Shown in pieces: positions 6,482 to 50,395 of a stretch of DNA of 50,395 bases; position 1 is the stretch's first letter, and every line of letters starts with the position of its first letter. The translations under genes and the position numbers were made by a program. The DNA is from Chloroflexota bacterium (GTDB lineage Bacteria; Chloroflexota; Anaerolineae; Anaerolineales; UBA11858). The stretch is taken from NCBI GenBank assembly GCA_030608465.1, contig JAUWEC010000002.1, forward strand, positions 1-50,395. Reading direction: 5' to 3'. The notes under the pieces are model-generated. The model saw nothing but the letters and a program-made list of their open reading frames with translations. It did not search any database and was not told the DNA's origin.

Positions 6482-6695
6482 TATATCTTCGACCTGGACG
6501 GAACAGTACTTTTGAGACAAAATGCCATCCCCGTCACTCCAGAAATCATTGTCGATCTACAAAAACGCGGCTGGAGAGCGGATTTCCTTTCCAACAAACC
6601 CTTGCAGCTGTAAAAAAATATACGCTGAGAAACGAACCCGGTTGGGTATTCCCATTTCACCGGATGACATTATCAACTCATCGCTGGCGCTGTGA
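6482..6695 (+). pseudogene. Remnant of a HAD-IIA (NagD-like) hydrolase: N-terminal third only, frameshifted
   Basis: Frame 2 reads YIFDLDGTVLLRQNAIPVTPEIIVDLQKRGWRADFLSNKPLQL and stops at 6611. After an A7 run (6612-6618), frame 3 continues IYAEKRTRLGIPISPDDIINSSLAL and stops at 6693. The DxDGT motif and S/T-N motif II are present. There is no start codon and no C-terminal two-thirds. Confidence 0.7.
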
Positions 6696-26923: not shown

Positions 26924-27715
26924 ATGGAATTTGAAAAAATAAAAAAAACCGAATGTTTCTTGTTTGACCTGGATGGTACTGTTTACCTTGGAGACCAGCT
27001 TCTTCCTGGTGCCAGGGACCTGTTGGCCTATCTGGATAAAAATTCCAGACCCTATCTCTTCTTGACCAATAATTCCTCCCGCTCCCGGGCGGATTATTCA
27101 TTGAAACTGACCAAATATGGATTAGATACACCGAATGAGAAGATTTTTTCCTCAGGCATGGCAACCGCGATTTATCTGAAAAAAAAACAACCGGGCGCCA
27201 GGGTTTATCTAGTGGGCACTCCCTCGCTGGAAGATGAATTCCGCTCCTATGGGTTTGAGCTTGTTGAGGAGAATCCAGACTTTGCCGTGCTGGGCTTTGA
27301 CACCACACTGACTTATGAAAAAATCTGGAAGCTGGCTAATTTTGTGCGAGAGGGAAAACCCTATATTGCCACCCATCCGGATATCAACTGTCCGACTCCG
27401 AACGGTTATATGCCTGATATCGGGGCTATGATGGCGATGATCGCCTCTTCCACGGGACGGGAACCGGACGTAATTGTCGGAAAACCTCATTCCCCTATGG
27501 TGGAAGCCATCGTAGAAAAAACCGGATTTGGACCTGATAAATTAACCATGGTTGGGGACCGCTTGTATACCGATATTGCCATGGGTGCAGCCGGGATCAG
27601 TACTGTGCTGGTGTTAAGCGGAGAAACTAATATGGAAGATCTGGTGAATGCTCCGTATCAACCGGACTTGGTATGTGATAACCTGGGGGAATTGCTGCGT
27701 TTGTTAGATGAGTAG
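26924..27715 (+). CDS. HAD-IIA (NagD-like) sugar/nucleotide phosphatase
   Basis: 263 aa. Motif I FLFDLDGTVY, motif II FLTNNS and motif IV MVGDRLYTDI. Confidence 0.8.
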   Translation: MEFEKIKKTECFLFDLDGTVYLGDQLLPGARDLLAYLDKNSRPYLFLTNNSSRSRADYSLKLTKYGLDTPNEKIFSSGMATAIYLKKKQPGARVYLVGTPSLEDEFRSYGFELVEENPDFAVLGFDTTLTYEKIWKLANFVREGKPYIATHPDINCPTPNGYMPDIGAMMAMIASSTGREPDVIVGKPHSPMVEAIVEKTGFGPDKLTMVGDRLYTDIAMGAAGISTVLVLSGETNMEDLVNAPYQPDLVCDNLGELLRLLDE

Positions 27716-33039: not shown

Positions 33040-34464
33040 ATGCAAGGTTACTCATCTCAACCAAAAAAATCACCCGATTGGATAAAACGCGGTTTGTGGG
33101 CGGCTTTTTTAATTTCTGCTTTAATCACCGCCTTGCTGGCATTTTGGGGGTTGAATAACAAGACAGGGACTCCTCTGCCGATACTATTGGACGGACCTTC
33201 TTCTTCCTTCTCTGACACAGATATCTCCCAACCCATACTGGCTGATGATCGGTTGCTTCAAAGCACCTCTAGCCGACCCGGGTTTAAGGAACTCGATCTG
33301 GATCAGACAATATATTTTTTACTGACCGGATTGGACAAACGGGAATGGGAGGGAGATACCGGACCGGGATTAACAGATACGATCATTGTAGCTTTTCTTG
33401 ATACCCAGAAACAATTTGCAGGTTTAATCTCCATCCCCCGGGATACCTGGGTGGATTTGCCCCAGTACGGACCTTATAAAATTAATCAGGCATTTTCTCT
33501 GGGAGAAGCATATGGCTATCCGGGCGGAGGACCAGCATTGCTGATGGAAAGTACCGGGAACTTGCTCGGGATTACCATAGATTATTATATTCAGGTAGAT
33601 TTTGATGCATTTATAGTCCTGGTGGATTCGGTCAATGGAGTCCCGATAGATGTACAAAAAAAAATACTAGTTGATCCTGATCCCTCAGTGGCTGGAGATA
33701 TGAAAAAATTATTACCTGGAAAACAAGTACTGCCGGGTGACCTGGCTTTGGGATATGTCCGGACCCGGGGGACTTCAGAAGGGGATTTCGGGCGGACGAA
33801 ACGTCAACAGCAGGTTCTGATTGGATTACAAGAGAAGATCTTTTCTTATGAGGTATTACCTGAGTTGATTCCTAAGCTGCCGACTCTATATCGGGAGCTG
33901 TTTTCCCATGTTGAAACAAACCTCAATCTTAGCCAGGTTGTGGCACTGGCCTGGGCTGTCAGAGATATCAATCCAAGAAATCTGCAAACCAAAATTATCA
34001 ATCAGCCTCTGGTGGAAGCGGGATTTAATACCCGGGATCAATATGTTTTATTCCCGGATATTGAACGAATCCAGAAAGTCTGGAGTGATATGCAGCAATC
34101 GGCAGCAACCCCCGTTCCGGATCCTACCCGGGAAGTCACCCTGGATGAATATCTCCTGGAAGAAAATGCCAAAGTGGCAGTCATGAATGGAACCAATTCA
34201 CCGGGATTGGCAGGAGAAACAGCCAATTTCTTCATCGCAAATGGTTTCCAAATTACTGAAGTGGGAAATTCAGATAATTTCAAAGACCAAACCCTCATTT
34301 ATGATTATTCGGGAAAACCACATACTATTCAGGCACTCCTGAATTTAATGGGGTATTCTCAAACCCGACTTTTTTATCGATTTGATCCGGACAGCACTGT
34401 TGATATTGTCATTGAGCTCGGGACAGATTGGGTCCAGGAGAACACGCTTCCAGATACAGAATAA
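33040..34464 (+). CDS. LytR-CpsA-Psr (LCP) family cell-envelope polymer transferase with LytR_C domain
   Basis: N-terminal TM helix. LCP core TDTIIVAFLD...ISIPRDTWVDLP. C-terminal VAVMNGTNSPGLAGETANFFIANGFQI. Confidence 0.85.
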   Translation: MQGYSSQPKKSPDWIKRGLWAAFLISALITALLAFWGLNNKTGTPLPILLDGPSSSFSDTDISQPILADDRLLQSTSSRPGFKELDLDQTIYFLLTGLDKREWEGDTGPGLTDTIIVAFLDTQKQFAGLISIPRDTWVDLPQYGPYKINQAFSLGEAYGYPGGGPALLMESTGNLLGITIDYYIQVDFDAFIVLVDSVNGVPIDVQKKILVDPDPSVAGDMKKLLPGKQVLPGDLALGYVRTRGTSEGDFGRTKRQQQVLIGLQEKIFSYEVLPELIPKLPTLYRELFSHVETNLNLSQVVALAWAVRDINPRNLQTKIINQPLVEAGFNTRDQYVLFPDIERIQKVWSDMQQSAATPVPDPTREVTLDEYLLEENAKVAVMNGTNSPGLAGETANFFIANGFQITEVGNSDNFKDQTLIYDYSGKPHTIQALLNLMGYSQTRLFYRFDPDSTVDIVIELGTDWVQENTLPDTE

Positions 34465-44029: not shown

Positions 44030-46606
44030 TTATACCAAAGTCACCAGGGAACCCTGGGGAGTCTTTTCCACAAATAGCTGGGTTGAAAAGGCTTCTTTGA
44101 TCTGCTCTATGTGCGTGATGACCAGGATTTTTTCGAAATCACCCCGGATCAGGTTAATTGCTTCAATAAGTCGCTGCCTGCCGATGGAATCCTGACTGCC
44201 AAATCCCTCATCGATTACCAGGGTCTGGAGCCTGGCGCCAGCCCGCTGCGCTAATACATGGGACAATGCCAGCCGGACAGCAAAATTGATCCGGAAGGAT
44301 TCGCCGCCGGAATACATCTCGTAATCCCGGAAACCGGACTGGTCCCGGATTTGGATGTCGAGAGTTTCCTTGAGGTCTTCCCGGCCGGAATCTTTATACG
44401 ATCTCTGGGTGAGAAATCGGATTGACATGGTTCCGCCACTCAATCGCTCTAATATCTGATTTGATTTGGCTTCAATGTTGGGAAGTGCCTGTTCTATTAG
44501 CAAGGCAGGAACCCCGTCTTTGCCGAAAGCTGCTTCCAATTGTTTATATTGTTTCACCTGACTGCTGATTTCCTGGCGTTCCCCTTCCAGCTCATTTTTG
44601 CGCAATTTTTGTTTCCCAAGAACTGAAACCTTTTGCTGGGCTGCGCCGACTTGTCGCTGGAGAATGTTTTCTTTCTCTTTGAGCTCAAGTAGATTATTTT
44701 CTGCTTGCTTCGTATCCGGGGCTTTCCCTTCTGCTGTTTCGAGGACTTGACGGCTGCGGTCAAGTTCGGAAGTTTGCTTTTTAAGGTCTGTCTTATCAGA
44801 AGCCAACACAGCAGTTATATCTTTGATTTCCCTTTCAAGCGGTTTTAAAGCTGACTGGGCACTATCCAGAGCCCTTTTTCTTTCCTGGATAACAGGGCTC
44901 TGCATAACAATTTCACGCACTCGGTCATGCTCGGCAGCGTCATAACCGATTTTTTTCAGTTCGGCGTTGATATCGGTAAGCAGCTGGCGGGATTCTTCCG
45001 CGTAGGAATTATTGTCCAGTGTCTGTTGAATATCCTCCATCTTTTTCCTCTGCTGTGAATCCCAAGATTGTTTTCGCCCGTTTAATTGAGTGATTTGGTT
45101 TGCGGTTTTGTCCGTTCCCTGAATCAGATTCCGCAGCTTATTTTCTACCAAACTGAATTCAGTGATTTGCAGCTGCAGATCTTTCACCACCTGAGCTGCT
45201 TTTTTTAGAGTGGTTTTATTTTCTCGGAAGCGATCCCCTAAATCTTTACCTTCTGCTTTGAGAGAATAAATGAGAGATTCTCTATCTTCGAGTGAGAGCG
45301 CCTGTCCACATAAAGGACAGAGTGCCCCCTCGGTTTCTTCCAGCTCATCAATCCGCTTTTCCAGTTCCTTCATTTCCTGATATAAGCGGGGGTTTTCAGC
45401 TTTTGCATCGGCCTGTTGTTGACGGGCCTGGTCCAATTCTTTTTTCTTTTGATCCCGATTTTCCAGCTCCTCTTCTGCCTGTTTGACTTTATCTTTTTGT
45501 TCAGCCAACACATCCGTTAAAGCTGGAATATCATCTAATGAGCTTCGCAGCTCCTTGTATTGGGCTTCCAGCGAAGTTCGTTCCTGCAGCAAACGGGCTT
45601 TTTCAGCAGTGATTTGGAGCAAAGGTTCCTGCCTTTTGTTTTCCTGCTCCCGGAATTTTTCTGCCGTTTTTTCCCAGTCAGATAATGCGTCCTGCGCTTT
45701 TTTCCAATCCTCGTTTTCCTTATTGATACTTTCAGCCTGGGACATAATATCCTGGTAGCTTTTTCTTTCCGCTTCCCTCTCGGCGAGTTTTTCCTGAGTT
45801 TGTGTCACTCGTTCAGTAATTTTTTTTGTTTGTTGGGTTAATGTGTCTACCAATCTGCGCTGTTCTTTTAAAACAGAATAAATGGACTGCATTTCTTCCA
45901 GCTGCTTTTCACCAACTATTCTTACCTCGTGTGCCCGGGACAAATCCTTTTCAAGGGAAAGAAGGTGGTCTTTCCTCTGACCCTCTTCCTCTAATTCACT
46001 GAGGATTTCCGCGATACGGCCATCCAGCGTATCAATTTTTGATTCAGCGTTTTTTCGTTTCTGGGCTGCCTGTTTCCGGTAATTTTCCCAGATCTCCAAC
46101 CCCAGGATCTGCGAGAGAATCCTTTTTCTGGTAGACGGATTTTGTTGGGTAAATTGGTCTGCTTCACCCTGGAGCAGAAAAGATGCATTAATAAAAGATT
46201 CGTAATCAAGCCGCAGAATATCCACAATTTCCTGGTCAGTCTCTCTCAGGGTACGTTCGGTTAATGGCTGCCAGATTGGATCGTCTGCGTTCTTGCCATT
46301 CTTCTGCTGAATGTGAAACTCTACGAATTTAGTCTCACCTCTGGGATTGCTCCGAATAATCCGGTATTGGTTACCCTCGTAATGAAAAATGAAGGTTACT
46401 TCTGCCCGGTGGGATTCCAGGTTAATTACGGATTCATCGTGTTTTCTGGCTCTTCCGAATAGGGCCCAGGTGATTGCATCCAGGATGGAGGATTTCCCAG
46501 CCCCATTCTCTCCGGAAATGCAGGCCAATTTGAAGCTGGTGAAATCAATCTCTACCGGTTCTTTGTAGGATAAAAACCCAGTTATGGACAATGAGATAGG
46601 AATCAT
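44030..46606 (-). CDS. sbcC: SbcC/Rad50-family ATPase with zinc hook
   Basis: N-terminal Walker A GENGAGKSS, long heptad-rich coiled coil, central CPLCGQ hook, signature LSGGESF and Walker B LVIDEGFGSQD. Start set at ATG 46606 (MIPISLSITGFLSY); the track TTG start is 46645. Confidence 0.85.
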   Translation of the reverse strand: MIPISLSITGFLSYKEPVEIDFTSFKLACISGENGAGKSSILDAITWALFGRARKHDESVINLESHRAEVTFIFHYEGNQYRIIRSNPRGETKFVEFHIQQKNGKNADDPIWQPLTERTLRETDQEIVDILRLDYESFINASFLLQGEADQFTQQNPSTRKRILSQILGLEIWENYRKQAAQKRKNAESKIDTLDGRIAEILSELEEEGQRKDHLLSLEKDLSRAHEVRIVGEKQLEEMQSIYSVLKEQRRLVDTLTQQTKKITERVTQTQEKLAEREAERKSYQDIMSQAESINKENEDWKKAQDALSDWEKTAEKFREQENKRQEPLLQITAEKARLLQERTSLEAQYKELRSSLDDIPALTDVLAEQKDKVKQAEEELENRDQKKKELDQARQQQADAKAENPRLYQEMKELEKRIDELEETEGALCPLCGQALSLEDRESLIYSLKAEGKDLGDRFRENKTTLKKAAQVVKDLQLQITEFSLVENKLRNLIQGTDKTANQITQLNGRKQSWDSQQRKKMEDIQQTLDNNSYAEESRQLLTDINAELKKIGYDAAEHDRVREIVMQSPVIQERKRALDSAQSALKPLEREIKDITAVLASDKTDLKKQTSELDRSRQVLETAEGKAPDTKQAENNLLELKEKENILQRQVGAAQQKVSVLGKQKLRKNELEGERQEISSQVKQYKQLEAAFGKDGVPALLIEQALPNIEAKSNQILERLSGGTMSIRFLTQRSYKDSGREDLKETLDIQIRDQSGFRDYEMYSGGESFRINFAVRLALSHVLAQRAGARLQTLVIDEGFGSQDSIGRQRLIEAINLIRGDFEKILVITHIEQIKEAFSTQLFVEKTPQGSLVTLV

Positions 46607-46668
46607 GTTACCAATGATAACAGATCGAAATAAGATTCCCCCCAAGTTTGGAATGACGCGTTCTCTGA

Positions 46669-47454
46669 TTAGAACCCGATTTCTTCCTTCACCGTTTGGA
46701 GAAGCTTATCTGCTTGAAGATCAGTGAGACAGTAATAAGATGCCTTTAAGTGATCAGCAATTTCACTTGCCAGGCCTTTGTCAAATTCCCGGTGCTCCAT
46801 ATTGATAACGACACTGGGAATTTCTTCCATGGCGATTTTTTCGGCAATCTTATAGGCTTCTTCTTGGGGCGGCATCCGGGATATCGATACATTTCCAACC
46901 CCGTCTGTGAGCAGGATCAGCAGGGGACGGACATCTGGATGAGCAAGTTCCTCCCGTTTAATAACCTTGAAAGCCATGTTTAGCCCTGCTGACAGGGGGG
47001 TTTTTCCCCCTATGGGAATATCTGACAAGGAGCGCCGGGCAAGCTCTATAGAGTTTGTAGGAGGCAGAACCAGCTGGGCCCGATCTTTTTGGAAAACCAC
47101 CATGCCAACCCGATCGCGTCGCTGGTAAGCATCTGTCAACAGAGAGAGGATAGCGCCTTTGGCAGCGCTCATCCGTTCAGCAACAGCCATTGACCAGGAG
47201 GCATCCACGACAAAGAGGATTAAATTGGAAGTTTGTTTAACGCGGACTTTTCGCTGGAGGTCATGCTTGCGAATGGAAAAAGCCAATTTATTATCAGCGG
47301 CGCGGCGCTGCTTCTGGAATGGCGCCGCTGCCCGGATAGTGGCGTCAAAAGCGATATCTGATGTCTTGCCCTCGGCCGGCCGGGCCTGGATATACCTTCC
47401 CCTTTTTGTTTCTGTTCGGGTCTGAGAACGGCGACCGCTGGATCTGCGGTTCAT
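46669..47454 (-). CDS. VWA-domain protein resembling the C-terminal half of Mg-chelatase subunit D (ChlD/BchD)
   Basis: RGRYIQARP...DIAFDATIRAAAPFQ, then MIDAS VVDASWSM and GGKTPLSAGL. The only canonical start is ATG 47454, which has no SD. Its frame stays open upstream to 47625. Confidence 0.8.
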   Translation of the reverse strand: MNRRSSGRRSQTRTETKRGRYIQARPAEGKTSDIAFDATIRAAAPFQKQRRAADNKLAFSIRKHDLQRKVRVKQTSNLILFVVDASWSMAVAERMSAAKGAILSLLTDAYQRRDRVGMVVFQKDRAQLVLPPTNSIELARRSLSDIPIGGKTPLSAGLNMAFKVIKREELAHPDVRPLLILLTDGVGNVSISRMPPQEEAYKIAEKIAMEEIPSVVINMEHREFDKGLASEIADHLKASYYCLTDLQADKLLQTVKEEIGF

Positions 47455-47612
47455 CCGGTCGAGAGGGGCATCTATTATATCCGGGTCAAAAGAGTCTCCG
47501 ATTTTTACAGGATTACCGCCTTCCCACCAAGCGGCGCTGCTATGCTCAAAGACCTCTCTGGACCCAGATTCCGCTGAAATTTCGTTATGTTGTGTATCAA
47601 TAACTGAGCTTG

Positions 47613-48731
47613 CTAGAGTTTTTTTTTATCGCCGTTATCCCCCGTTGCTTCACTGCCGGATTCCTCGCCTTGATCTCCCGGCTCCCCCTCAGCTTCCGCT
47701 GAAGCGCCTTCGAGCTGTTCAATCTTTTCTGTCAATTCTTCAGCAGTGACTTCAGATTGCTGGAAAGGTCCCCGTTTTAATCGATGTGGGTAAGCGAGCT
47801 CAGCGGCTAATCCAATATCTCTGCCGGTGATTGCCGTTCTGCCCTCAAAAGCAGCATGAGCCCTGGCGGTTTTCAAGGTTACCAGGTCGGAGCGATGGCC
47901 ATCTACCTTGAGGGAGACGCTCAGGTTGGCGATATCAACCAGGTTTTTAGAGGAATACCGTACTTCCGGCAGCAGTTTTCTAGCGAGGGTGATTTGCTGG
48001 GATAATTCCTGTTCTTTGGGAAGCCATTGTTCCCGGAAAGCTGCGGGGTCCTCTTCGTAGGCCAGGTGCCGTTCCATAATCAGAACCCGTTCATGTATAT
48101 CGCGGATTCCGCGGATGTCCACTGAGAGAGCAAAACGATCCATAAGCTGCGGGCGGAGATCACCTTCTTCGGGATTCATGGTGCCAACCAATATGAATCG
48201 GGCAGGATGACTGAAGGAAATCCCTTCTCGTTCAACAATATTCATACCCATAGCGGCAGAATCTAGCAGCAGGTCTACCACATGATCATCCAGCAGGTTT
48301 ACTTCATCGATATACAGAAGTCCCCGGTTGGCATCAGCCAGCACACCCGGATCAAAATGACGTTCACCTACCTGGATGGCTTTTTCAATATCTAATGTGC
48401 CGACTACCCGGTCCTCGGTTGCTGAAACTGGTAAATTAACAAAAGGAGTTGGCAGCATTTCAATTTTCCGCTGGTCGCCATTTTCCGATTTTTCCCGGCA
48501 TTCAGTGCACCAGGTTGTAGGCCGGTTTGGATCACAGCTAAAGCGGCAGTCAGAAAAGGTTTCCACAGTGGGCAGTAAAGCTGCCAGAGCCCGAGCAGCA
48601 GTGGATTTTGCAGTTCCGCGTTCCCCGCGGATCAAAACGCCGCCGATTCTGGTATTAACAGCGTTAAGAACCAGAGCACGTTTCATGCGTTCTTGACCCA
48701 CGACTGCAGTAAAAGGATAAATCGATGTCAT
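47613..48731 (-). CDS. ChlI/BchI-type AAA+ ATPase (Mg-chelatase subunit I family) with acidic C-terminal tail
   Basis: FTAVVGQERMKRALVLNAV, Walker A GERGTAKST, Cys-rich insert CRFSCDP...CTEC, Walker B LYIDEVNLLDDHVVDLLLD and NPEEGDLRPQLMDRFALSV. Start set at ATG 48731; the track start is 48791. Ends DKKKL-stop inside an A9 tract. Confidence 0.85.
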   Translation of the reverse strand: MTSIYPFTAVVGQERMKRALVLNAVNTRIGGVLIRGERGTAKSTAARALAALLPTVETFSDCRFSCDPNRPTTWCTECREKSENGDQRKIEMLPTPFVNLPVSATEDRVVGTLDIEKAIQVGERHFDPGVLADANRGLLYIDEVNLLDDHVVDLLLDSAAMGMNIVEREGISFSHPARFILVGTMNPEEGDLRPQLMDRFALSVDIRGIRDIHERVLIMERHLAYEEDPAAFREQWLPKEQELSQQITLARKLLPEVRYSSKNLVDIANLSVSLKVDGHRSDLVTLKTARAHAAFEGRTAITGRDIGLAAELAYPHRLKRGPFQQSEVTAEELTEKIEQLEGASAEAEGEPGDQGEESGSEATGDNGDKKKL

Positions 48732-48864: not shown

Positions 48865-48896
48865 GATGTCCATTCTAAAACGGAGCGTGCCATTTT

Positions 48897-50395
48897 ATGG
48901 AAGAGATGAAGTCCCAACTTGGGGGAGAATCAATTCAAGAGAATTCACCCCCTTCAGAAATTATGGATATGGAAACACTCTTAGCCCAGGAAGGCCTAGG
49001 GCTAGGAAATATCCCTGAACGGGGAGATATCCGAAAAGGGGTAATCACAGCGATTACCTCAAACGAGATCCTGATCGATGTCCAATCGAAAGCGGATGGT
49101 TTGATTGCCGGACGGGAGCTGGAGGGTATCAACCCCCAAACCCTGAAAGATTTTCAAGTTGGAGAAGAAATCCTCGTTTATGTACTAGAACCGGAAGATA
49201 ACAACGGTCATGTTGTGCTTTCGTTTACCCGTGCCCAGGAAGAACAGGACTGGGAAAAGGTAGAGAGCAGTCTTGAATCCGGGGAAGCAATTACAACTTT
49301 TGTGGAAGGATACAATAAAGGTGGATTGCTGGTTCCGGTTGGTCAGCTGCGCGGATTTGTTCCCGGGTCATTGGTGAGTGTTTTCCGCGAAGGTGATGGC
49401 GGCTCACCGGAAGACCGCTGGAGCGAAGCTATCGGGAAAGAAATTACTTTGAAAGTAATCGAAGTTGATAGATCCCGGCAGCGATTAATCCTTTCTGAAC
49501 GTGACGCGATTGGAGAAACCCGGGAAGCAATCAAGGACCAGCTGCTGGATAATCTAGCAGTCGGAGATCGGGTGTCTGGTTACGTAAGCAGCCTGGCGGA
49601 TTTCGGCGCTTTTGTAAACATCCAGGGAGTGGACGGATTGGTTCACCTTTCCGAACTTTCCTGGGACCATGTAGACCATCCCAGTGATTTGGTGAAAGTT
49701 GGGCAGGAACTGGAGGTTGAGGTCATCAGCATTGATGAGGATAAACGCCGCATTGGTTTATCCATGAGACGGCTGCAGGATAATCCCTGGATAGAGAAAG
49801 CTGAGGAAATCCAAGAAGGACAGTTGATCCAAGGTACGATTACTAACCTGACAGATTTTGGGGCCTTTGCCCGTATTGAGAACACAGATCTGGAAGGATT
49901 AATTCATATATCTGAACTAAGCATGGATCGAGTCGGCCATCCTTCTGAGGTAGTGAGTGTAGGGGAAACTCTGGCTTTACGTGTGATCAGTCTGGACATG
50001 GAGCGGCACCGAATTGGATTAAGCCTGGAGAAAGTAGACTCAGATGAATACGCTAAGATTGACTTGGAGCAGATTCAAGAAGAACTGAATGGAGAAAGTT
50101 CATTAGAGGATTTGTTGTCCGGTACGGAAGCTGGGGAGGAAATGGAAGAAGGACCTGTGTCTGAACTTTCCGATGACGTGGAAGCGGAAAAGGAAGGTAC
50201 AGAGGACGAGGAAACAGAAGAGGAAGAGGAAGTAGATAAACCTCCCGCAGAAGAAGAGCCAGAAGAGGAAGAGGAAGTAGATGAACCTCCCGCAGAAGAA
50301 GAGCCAGATGAGGAAGAGGAAGTAGATGAACCTCCCGCAGAAGAAGAGCCAGATGAGGAAGAGGAAGTAGATGAACCTCCCGCAGAAGAAGAGCC
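48897..50395 (+). CDS. rpsA: 30S ribosomal protein S1 (four S1 domains) with acidic repeat tail; 3' end outside window
   Basis: Not in the ORF track because no stop is reached. The frame is open from ATG 48897, with GGAG 11 nt upstream, to the window end. Four S1 domains are present, e.g. GDRVSGYVSSLADFGAFVNIQGVDGLVHLSELS and GQLIQGTITNLTDFGAFARIE...GLIHISELS. Confidence 0.88.
   Translation, partial: MEEMKSQLGGESIQENSPPSEIMDMETLLAQEGLGLGNIPERGDIRKGVITAITSNEILIDVQSKADGLIAGRELEGINPQTLKDFQVGEEILVYVLEPEDNNGHVVLSFTRAQEEQDWEKVESSLESGEAITTFVEGYNKGGLLVPVGQLRGFVPGSLVSVFREGDGGSPEDRWSEAIGKEITLKVIEVDRSRQRLILSERDAIGETREAIKDQLLDNLAVGDRVSGYVSSLADFGAFVNIQGVDGLVHLSELSWDHVDHPSDLVKVGQELEVEVISIDEDKRRIGLSMRRLQDNPWIEKAEEIQEGQLIQGTITNLTDFGAFARIENTDLEGLIHISELSMDRVGHPSEVVSVGETLALRVISLDMERHRIGLSLEKVDSDEYAKIDLEQIQEELNGESSLEDLLSGTEAGEEMEEGPVSELSDDVEAEKEGTEDEETEEEEEVDKPPAEEEPEEEEEVDEPPAEEEPDEEEEVDEPPAEEEPDEEEEVDEPPAEEE
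50217..50395 (+). repeat. In-frame 45-nt tandem repeat (about 4 units) encoding E-E-E-E-E-V-D-[KE]-P-P-A-E-E-E-P
   Basis: Units at 50217-50261, 50262-50306, 50307-50351 and 50352-50395 (cut by the window end). Units 3 and 4 are identical at nucleotide level. Units 1 and 2 differ from them at 2-3 positions. Confidence 0.9.

Follow-up and report, generated by a model that had tools for sequence, protein, structure and literature searches.

An A9 run between ChlI-like and VWA reading frames as the candidate recoding site of an fs-chlD-type gene in an uncultured Anaerolineales bacterium

Two reading frames of one gene

The window analyzed here is a stretch of 50,395 nucleotides (nt) from an uncultured member of the Anaerolineales (Chloroflexota bacterium, contig JAUWEC010000002.1). 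On its minus strand, an open reading frame (ORF) for a ChlI-like AAA+ protein is followed by an ORF for a VWA domain protein, with an uninterrupted run of nine adenines (A9) close to the end of the first. An earlier note on this DNA proposed that the AAA+ domain, an acidic linker and the VWA domain are fused when the run gains one A or the frame slips by −1 on it, and that a short ChlI-like product results from standard decoding; the comparative data presented below strongly support this proposal. The features of the locus are as follows.

46669..48731, minus strand: the whole gene, of fs-chlD type and similar to TIGR02442 "putative cobaltochelatase", running from the putative start ATG 48731 to the VWA-frame stop
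47613..48731, minus strand: zero-frame ORF, ChlI-like AAA+ subunit with acidic tail, 372 amino acids (aa), 41.1 kDa (Pfam Mg_chelatase, AAA_lid_2, AAA_5)
47638..47643, minus strand: Shine-Dalgarno (SD)-like GGGGGA, 10 nt 5′ of A9, a possible but unproven stimulator
47626..47628, minus strand: TAA of the −1 frame at the 5′ edge of A9, located by translation; 5′ limit of the shift window
47619..47627, minus strand: A9 slippery tract (T9 on the plus strand; zero-frame codons AAA AAA AAA), the probable recoding site
47613..47615, minus strand: zero-frame TAG, one codon (CTC, 3 nt) past A9, which ends the short product; 3′ limit of the shift window
47455..47619, minus strand: bridge read only after the shift (TLASS...WWEGG...PLDR), the middle linker of ChlD-type proteins and not intergenic
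46669..47454, minus strand: basic region and C-terminal VWA domain with the metal-ion-dependent adhesion site (MIDAS) motif DASWS (Pfam VWA_2, VWA), mis-called as a separate 261-aa gene

Read on the minus strand, the AAA+ ORF ends ...GGC GAT AAA AAA AAA CTC TAG, as the earlier note had described, with the run in phase as the heptamer A_AAA_AAA and an acidic tail of EAEGEPGDQGEESGSEATGDNGD. In Pfam scans, the upstream ORF matched Mg_chelatase and AAA_lid_2, and the VWA ORF matched VWA_2/VWA. Translation of 47628-46669 gives a stop (TAA) and then KKTLASS...PLDRMNRR..., open to the end of the VWA ORF; written out, the residues after the TAA are KKTLASSVIDTQHNEISAESGSREVFEHSSAAWWEGGNPVKIGDSFDPDIIDAPLDR, then MNRRSSGRR... 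and onward through the VWA ORF. This translation bore out the claim that the −1 frame is open over 57 codons from a TAA overlapping the 5′ edge of the run, although such openness is unremarkable alone: of 57-codon windows drawn at random from this DNA, about 21% are stop-free. The ORF listing begins the VWA ORF at ATG 47454, the first ATG, GTG or TTG past the −1-frame TAA, so the bridge contains no such codon, as had been stated. The remaining structural claims were likewise found to be correct: no GGAGG-like SD sequence was seen 5′ of ATG 47454, where the sequence reads ...cccctctcgaccggATG, and the apparent intergenic gap (47455-47612) is 158 nt long. Between the TAA of one frame and the TAG of the other, the two frames overlap by 13 nt.

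ATG 48731 is the likely start of the gene, rather than ATG 48791, as it is preceded by AGGA at 7 nt and homologues begin at the equivalent of M21 (MxxIYPFTA). Initiation at ATG 48791 would give a 392-aa short product, for which no exact record was found in the protein collection searched (5.8 billion proteins); this form is unrecorded because gene callers use ATG 48731. The 372-aa form of the window is recorded there alongside other 372-aa members of its cluster.

A conceptual −1 shift on the run produces a protein of 687 aa (76.2 kDa) from ATG 48731, or 707 aa from ATG 48791, as compared with 372 aa (41.1 kDa) for the short product. The fused product matches TIGR02442 at 787.5 bits (cutoff 779.45) over profile positions 1-640 of 641, and this model is too long for either ORF alone to span. 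The name of the TIGR02442 family is based on genomic association with CobN or with B12/cobalt genes. Together with its length, the full-length match supports the earlier expectation of a fused ChlD-type product of about 700 aa, and the fusion has the corresponding plan of a ChlI-like AAA+ module, an acidic linker and a C-terminal VWA domain with MIDAS. When the protein collection was searched with the fused product, the best 120 matches were all single-ORF proteins of 636-736 aa (nearly all 665-700 aa) from Anaerolineales/Chloroflexota, with up to 76% identity at 95-97% query coverage, and carried the names "putative cobaltochelatase" or "magnesium chelatase subunit D". All fused homologues carry the precomputed Pfam domain PF26791, which was unseen in Pfam scans of the two separate ORFs.

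Alignment of the fused product with single-ORF homologues (18 sequences in total) revealed conservation on both sides of the junction and within the bridge. The AAA+ and VWA motifs GERGTAKS, DEVN and DASWS (Walker A and Walker B of the AAA+ module and the MIDAS DxSxS) are invariant, as are the MIDAS residues D530-A-S-W-S534, T598 and D630. Aligning the bridge to ChlD-type homologues, which had been proposed as a check, identified the invariant residues W422, W423, G425, G426, F435, D445 and R449, which belong to the WWEGG and PLDR motifs, and placed ATG 47454 at an internal L/M of the fused homologues. At the nucleotide level, column entropy in the bridge is 0.90, 0.69 and 1.57 at codon positions 1, 2 and 3 of the VWA frame (29-sequence alignment of the clade); being highest at codon position 3 of that frame, it identifies the bridge as translated sequence. 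ORFs 48731-47613 and 47454-46669 are therefore one gene with a coding bridge.

Conservation of the A run and of the frame break

Related loci were collected by a scan of one genome per GTDB species, which returned 80 loci, and by a protein-guided scan of JGI metagenome contigs, which returned another 80. In each locus, the stretch separating the AAA+ and VWA matches was searched for its longest A run, and the frames open into and out of that run were tested. An exact DNA pattern, AACGGCGAT-N7-12-CTCTAGCAAGCTC, had given no matches in metagenome contigs, as the flanking bases differ even where the proteins are 98% identical. Among the 75 genome loci that could be classified, 60 are shifted by −1 at the run (40 with A9, 20 with A10), 14 are in frame (nine A9, four A10, one A8) and one (L078) is +1. 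The 78 classified metagenome loci gave a similar picture, with 66 shifted by −1 at the run (34 A9, 32 A10) and 11 in frame with A9-A11, while one distant in-frame locus (56% identical) is without a run. In total, 126 related loci from independent assemblies carry a −1 break inside an A9 or A10 run, which answers the proposal to look for conservation of the tract in related genomes. A run of at least 8 A sits exactly at the junction in 75 of the 77 full related genome loci, the distant L046 and L047 (46% identity) having none.

The break is most uniform close to the window. All loci at least 80% identical to it whose upstream frame is open into the run are shifted by −1. The error-prone contigs L051, L052 and L125 have an extra break or N gap just 5′ of the run. 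L092, an independent 47-kb contig with 98% identity, has the same A9/−1 break between differing flanking bases. The 261-aa and 372-aa products of the window fall into 90%-identity clusters with many members of the same length (JGI, ENA, NCBI, Logan). Most of the window's clade has the TAAAAAAAAAC configuration, in which only 13-16 nt are shared by both frames (overlap sequence TAAAAAAAAACNNTAG), and a shift must therefore take place on the run. The zero-frame stop of shifted relatives lies 1-21 nt past the run, except in the error-prone nanopore-type L011 and L017 (19 and 53 nt), and the downstream frame of about 316 codons is stop-free in nearly all shifted loci.

The in-frame relatives (L001-L010, L013, L015, L016, L026 and L081-L091) have kept A8-A11 at the same position of the linker. 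In these relatives, both alternative frames meet a stop within 1-33 nt of the run, so that a slip would end in a short, ChlI-like protein. When frame states were mapped by parsimony onto a neighbour-joining tree of 140 loci, at least 14 switches between in-frame and −1 were required, and the close pair L059 (A9, −1) and L083 (A10, in frame) differs by one A.

Some loci carry irregularities of their own. In L011, L012, L014, L017, L019, L051 and L061, mostly from "MFD" metagenome-assembled genomes (MAGs), extra frame breaks occur elsewhere in chlD and are probably long-read homopolymer errors. In L052, the break coincides with an N gap. L078 carries A9 in a clade whose other members are A10/−1, and could be a miscall or a real one-base deletion.

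The run stands out from its surroundings in the nucleotide alignment of the clade, where it is the sole invariant block while the surrounding acidic linker varies freely. Its length is 9 or more in all but one of about 150 run-carrying loci (the exception being A8) and is never 7, and it occurs in codon phases 0, 1 and 2 and in both frame states. Lys codons elsewhere in these genes are 60% AAA and 40% AAG, so coding for KKK does not explain an uninterrupted A9-A11. The window contains three A/T runs of at least 9, as compared with 0.6 expected from base composition, and away from the chlD junction only five were found in 709 kb of related loci (0.007 per kb). The run is thus conserved and selected at the nucleotide level.

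Proposed slippage and competing explanations

Under standard decoding, translation would stop at TAG 47615-47613 and release a 372-aa, ~41-kDa ChlI-like AAA+ protein. In a fraction of expression events, the frame would shift by −1 on A9, either because RNA polymerase adds one A to the mRNA (A10) or because two Lys-tRNAs slip back on A_AAA_AAA. Reading would then continue as ...GDKKK-TLASS... through the WWEGG linker into the VWA domain and its MIDAS, producing a 687-aa, ~76-kDa ChlD-like protein with the junction peptide ...GDNGDKKKTLASSVIDTQH... and an N-terminal half identical to the short product, and the run would set the ratio of the two products from one gene. By analogy with ChlI/ChlD and CobS/CobT, these products would assemble into a two-tier AAA+ complex. 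From the comparative sequence data, it is very probable that recoding at A9 yields both products, a judgement that leaves aside which machine slips. That both are made in this organism, in which ratio and by which machine, and what the substrate of the complex would be, is what we infer from these data.

With respect to the machine, RNA-polymerase slippage is slightly favored as the larger contributor, and the ribosome may slip by −1 at this run as well. This modest lean follows from a run that is at least 9 long throughout and occurs in all phases and both frame states, and from the lack of any detectable RNA stimulator. A homopolymer of at least 8-9 A/T whose length is conserved irrespective of phase, as looked for in programmed transcriptional realignment of the kind known from Thermus dnaX and IS elements, is present. 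The 89 nt 3′ of the run fold no better than shuffled sequences (minimum free energy −14.4 kcal/mol, z = +1.38), RNAalifold found 0 consensus pairs downstream in the 29 sequences, and Rfam had no match at the site. Codon phase was dropped as a discriminator between ribosomal and transcriptional slippage, since any run of at least 9 A holds an in-phase A_AAA_AAA heptamer and the phase data are accordingly no bar to ribosomal slippage.

The strongest competitor still holds that one gene makes two products, and differs in attributing the shift purely to ribosomal −1 frameshifting as in dnaX, with GGGGGA pairing to 16S rRNA and no share for the polymerase. We regard this as possible but rather unlikely. 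The heptamer is in phase, and GGGGGA precedes the run by 10 nt, the spacing of E. coli dnaX. An in-phase A_AAA_AAG is present in the A10 clades, and programmed ribosomal frameshifting is the published label for these sites (PMC9227772, PMC5009743). However, the SD-like stimulator of the earlier note survives only in part. GGGGGA is present at the distance given, but conservation of the motif GGGGA(A)AACGG(G)GAT is limited to the nearest subclade, where it also encodes G-E/D-N-G-D and is confounded with coding, and both L037-L048 and the A10 clades lack it. In addition, neither the single-sequence nor the 29-sequence consensus fold contained a downstream hairpin, run length is held at 9 or more though 7 would suffice for a ribosome, and reporter efficiency climbs with run length (7 < 9 < 11), as polymerase slippage predicts (PMC3711429).

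DNA-level ON/OFF phase variation, or decay into a pseudogene, is far less probable. The −1 state would then mean that the long form is off and that each cell makes one product. The run is indeed a mutational hotspot, where gain or loss of one A has altered the frame state at least 14 times. Against this, the −1 state is fixed in whole multi-species clades, with more than 45 window-clade loci all A9/−1, and the ~316-codon downstream frame stays stop-free in nearly all shifted loci. The VWA half of −1 loci is intact, with invariant MIDAS residues and codon-periodic substitutions, and because both persist over such divergence the VWA region is not untranslated or switched off.

A homopolymer error in sequencing or assembly, behind which the true genome would be A10 with a plain in-frame chlD, can be set aside almost completely. 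Homopolymers are error-prone, and the nanopore-derived MAG loci named above do have extra breaks, but the same A9/−1 state recurs in dozens of independent Illumina-type assemblies including the 98%-identical contig, in-frame states are confined to more distant clades, and the other A9 runs of the window (27179-27187 and 33656-33664) are in frame inside intact HAD and LytR_cpsA_psr domains. The frame break is therefore real, and the caveat of a sequencing error that accompanied the original proposal is refuted, for the family as a whole, by the 126 loci with the same break, L092 among them.

The run at 33656-33664 (plus strand), the third A9 of the window, lies inside the LytR_cpsA_psr domain of a 474-aa ORF (33040-34464). 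A full-length HAD paralogue (26924-27715, plus strand) carries an intact in-frame A9. The "HAD remnant" at 6522-6695 (plus strand) gives a weak partial match to Hydrolase_6 around an A7 run (E = 6e-4, profile positions 27-69 of 101). It looks like a short decayed fragment rather than a homopolymer miscall, and its earlier use as a sign of such miscalls was not upheld.

Equally improbable is a natural split into a ChlI gene and a separately initiated short VWA gene, as gene callers annotate it (a 372-aa "ChlI" and a 261-aa "subunit D / VWA domain-containing protein" across a 158-nt spacer): this arrangement is ruled out by a "spacer" that holds WWEGG and other family-invariant residues in the VWA frame with coding periodicity and contains no ATG, GTG or TTG, and by an ATG 47454 that lacks an SD sequence and aligns to an internal L/M.

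Several points weigh against recoding into two chelatase-type products, or against the lean toward the polymerase. The related loci share phylogeny, and fewer of them are independent than their counts suggest. In the A10 clades, the sequence GAA AAA AAA AAG contains the classic dnaX heptamer A_AAA_AAG. The frameshifting of 63% (A11), 40% (A9) and 10% (A7) reported for Mg-chelatase cassettes was obtained with reporters in E. coli using cassettes of other species, a design that did not separate polymerase from ribosome (PMC3711429). Finally, no large subunit (CobN/ChlH) and no ORF of at least 1000 aa were found in the 50-kb window, and the chelatase role is putative.

Taking recoding on the run as the preferred reading, a more far-reaching version can be suggested tentatively. 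In Anaerolineales, the junction run may act mainly by polymerase slippage, such that every allele, whether in frame with A8-A11 or −1 with A9/A10, makes both proteins, and the I/D motor may work without ChlH/CobN on a non-tetrapyrrole substrate. If so, the genomic frame state would be nearly neutral, which would explain at least 14 flips without loss of the run.

Genomic neighborhood and relation to known systems

The gene is surrounded by genes for ribosomal protein S1, an SbcC/Rad50-like protein, metK, dnaN, a deoxynucleoside kinase and glutamate dehydrogenase. The S1-like gene (48882-50395, plus strand) has four S1 domains, is divergent from chlD and runs off the end of the window; it adjoins chlD in 63 of the 80 genome loci. 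Its product ends in a tandemly repeated acidic tail (EVDEPPAEEEPDEEE...). Starting 23 nt past the chlD stop, the SbcC/Rad50-like ATPase (44030-46645, minus strand, 871 aa) contains a zinc hook, and its pairing with chlD is syntenic in 33 of the 80 genome loci. No SbcD/Mre11 gene is adjacent to this ATPase, metK following on the other strand. PADLOC matches of the ATPase to LmuB (5e-30) look like generic SMC/Rad50 similarity, and PADLOC defence models returned nothing meaningful for the ChlI and VWA parts.

The locus should be annotated as one recoded gene (a join with −1 at 47619-47627) and not as "ChlI" and "VWA domain protein" separated by a 158-nt spacer, a mis-annotation that recurs in dozens of public MAGs.

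Canonical ChlI and ChlD (BchI/BchD) and CobS/CobT pair an AAA+ small subunit with a medium subunit composed of an AAA+-like N-domain, an acidic linker and a VWA domain with MIDAS. Here, in contrast, both subunits would come from one gene, and no ChlH/CobN is found nearby. TIGR02031 and TIGR02030 match strongly, yet remain below the curated ChlD and ChlI equivalog cutoffs (464.8 < 499.55 and 425.7 < 466.95, respectively).

As proposed for the present gene, E. coli dnaX makes two products that share an AAA+ N-terminal part from one gene by a slip on A_AAA_AAR. Its SD-like element 10 nt upstream also occurs in the window, but is unconserved across the chelatase family, and its downstream hairpin has no counterpart there; the full dnaX-type cassette of heptamer, conserved SD-like stimulator and downstream hairpin is thus absent. 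The shifted product is the short one in E. coli dnaX, whereas it would be the long one here. A parallel in the run itself is Thermus thermophilus dnaX, for which Larsen et al. (2000, cited in PMC3711429) are said to have described transcriptional slippage on A9. There, as proposed here, an A9 run needs no RNA stimulators and two products arise from a heterogeneous mRNA population, but the gene family is unrelated and the genomic frame encodes the long form.

The site itself belongs to the known fs-chlD (magnesium-chelatase) recoding family, published since 2013, and is a rediscovery. It shares with that family a ChlI-like ORF ahead of a VWA ORF that is offset by −1, a slippery poly-A stretch where the two overlap (A_AAA_AAR, 7-11 A), fused homologues and a two-gene database annotation. 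Of the features by which fs-chlD genes are recognized, adjacent ORFs related by −1 and an A-rich slippery site in their overlap were found in the window, and single-ORF homologues in the protein collection. Antonov et al. 2013 described 23 −1 fs-genes in a Mg-chelatase cluster, annotated as two adjacent genes although fused homologues exist, and their reporter measurements, including 40% frameshifting in E. coli for an A9 cassette, are a precedent for a slip on such a run (PMC3711429); the review of Atkins et al. 2016 placed A_AAA_AAR under purifying selection (PMC5009743). Kuznetsov et al. 2022, citing Antonov 2020, reported fs-chlD in Anaerolinea, Ornatilinea, Longilinea, Levilinea and Brevefilum; the carriers listed thus include Anaerolineae, some without a large subunit or B12/chlorophyll pathways, and these authors stressed that the role of an I/D pair lacking a large subunit is unexplained (PMC9227772). 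There is no difference in kind between those genes and the one in the window, whose host is an uncultured member of the Anaerolineales. The fs-chlD papers regard a downstream stimulatory RNA structure as usual but not obligatory, and none is detectable in the window's clade.

The fs-chlD accounts consulted treat the site as ribosomal frameshifting and in-frame genes as signal-less. Retention of the run in in-frame relatives and the repeated flips of frame were not found in PMC3711429, PMC5009743 or PMC9227772 and may go beyond these accounts. The locus would be a clear natural case of homopolymer-based stoichiometry control, and the family, with its pairs of in-frame and −1 alleles, would be well suited to telling transcriptional from ribosomal slippage.

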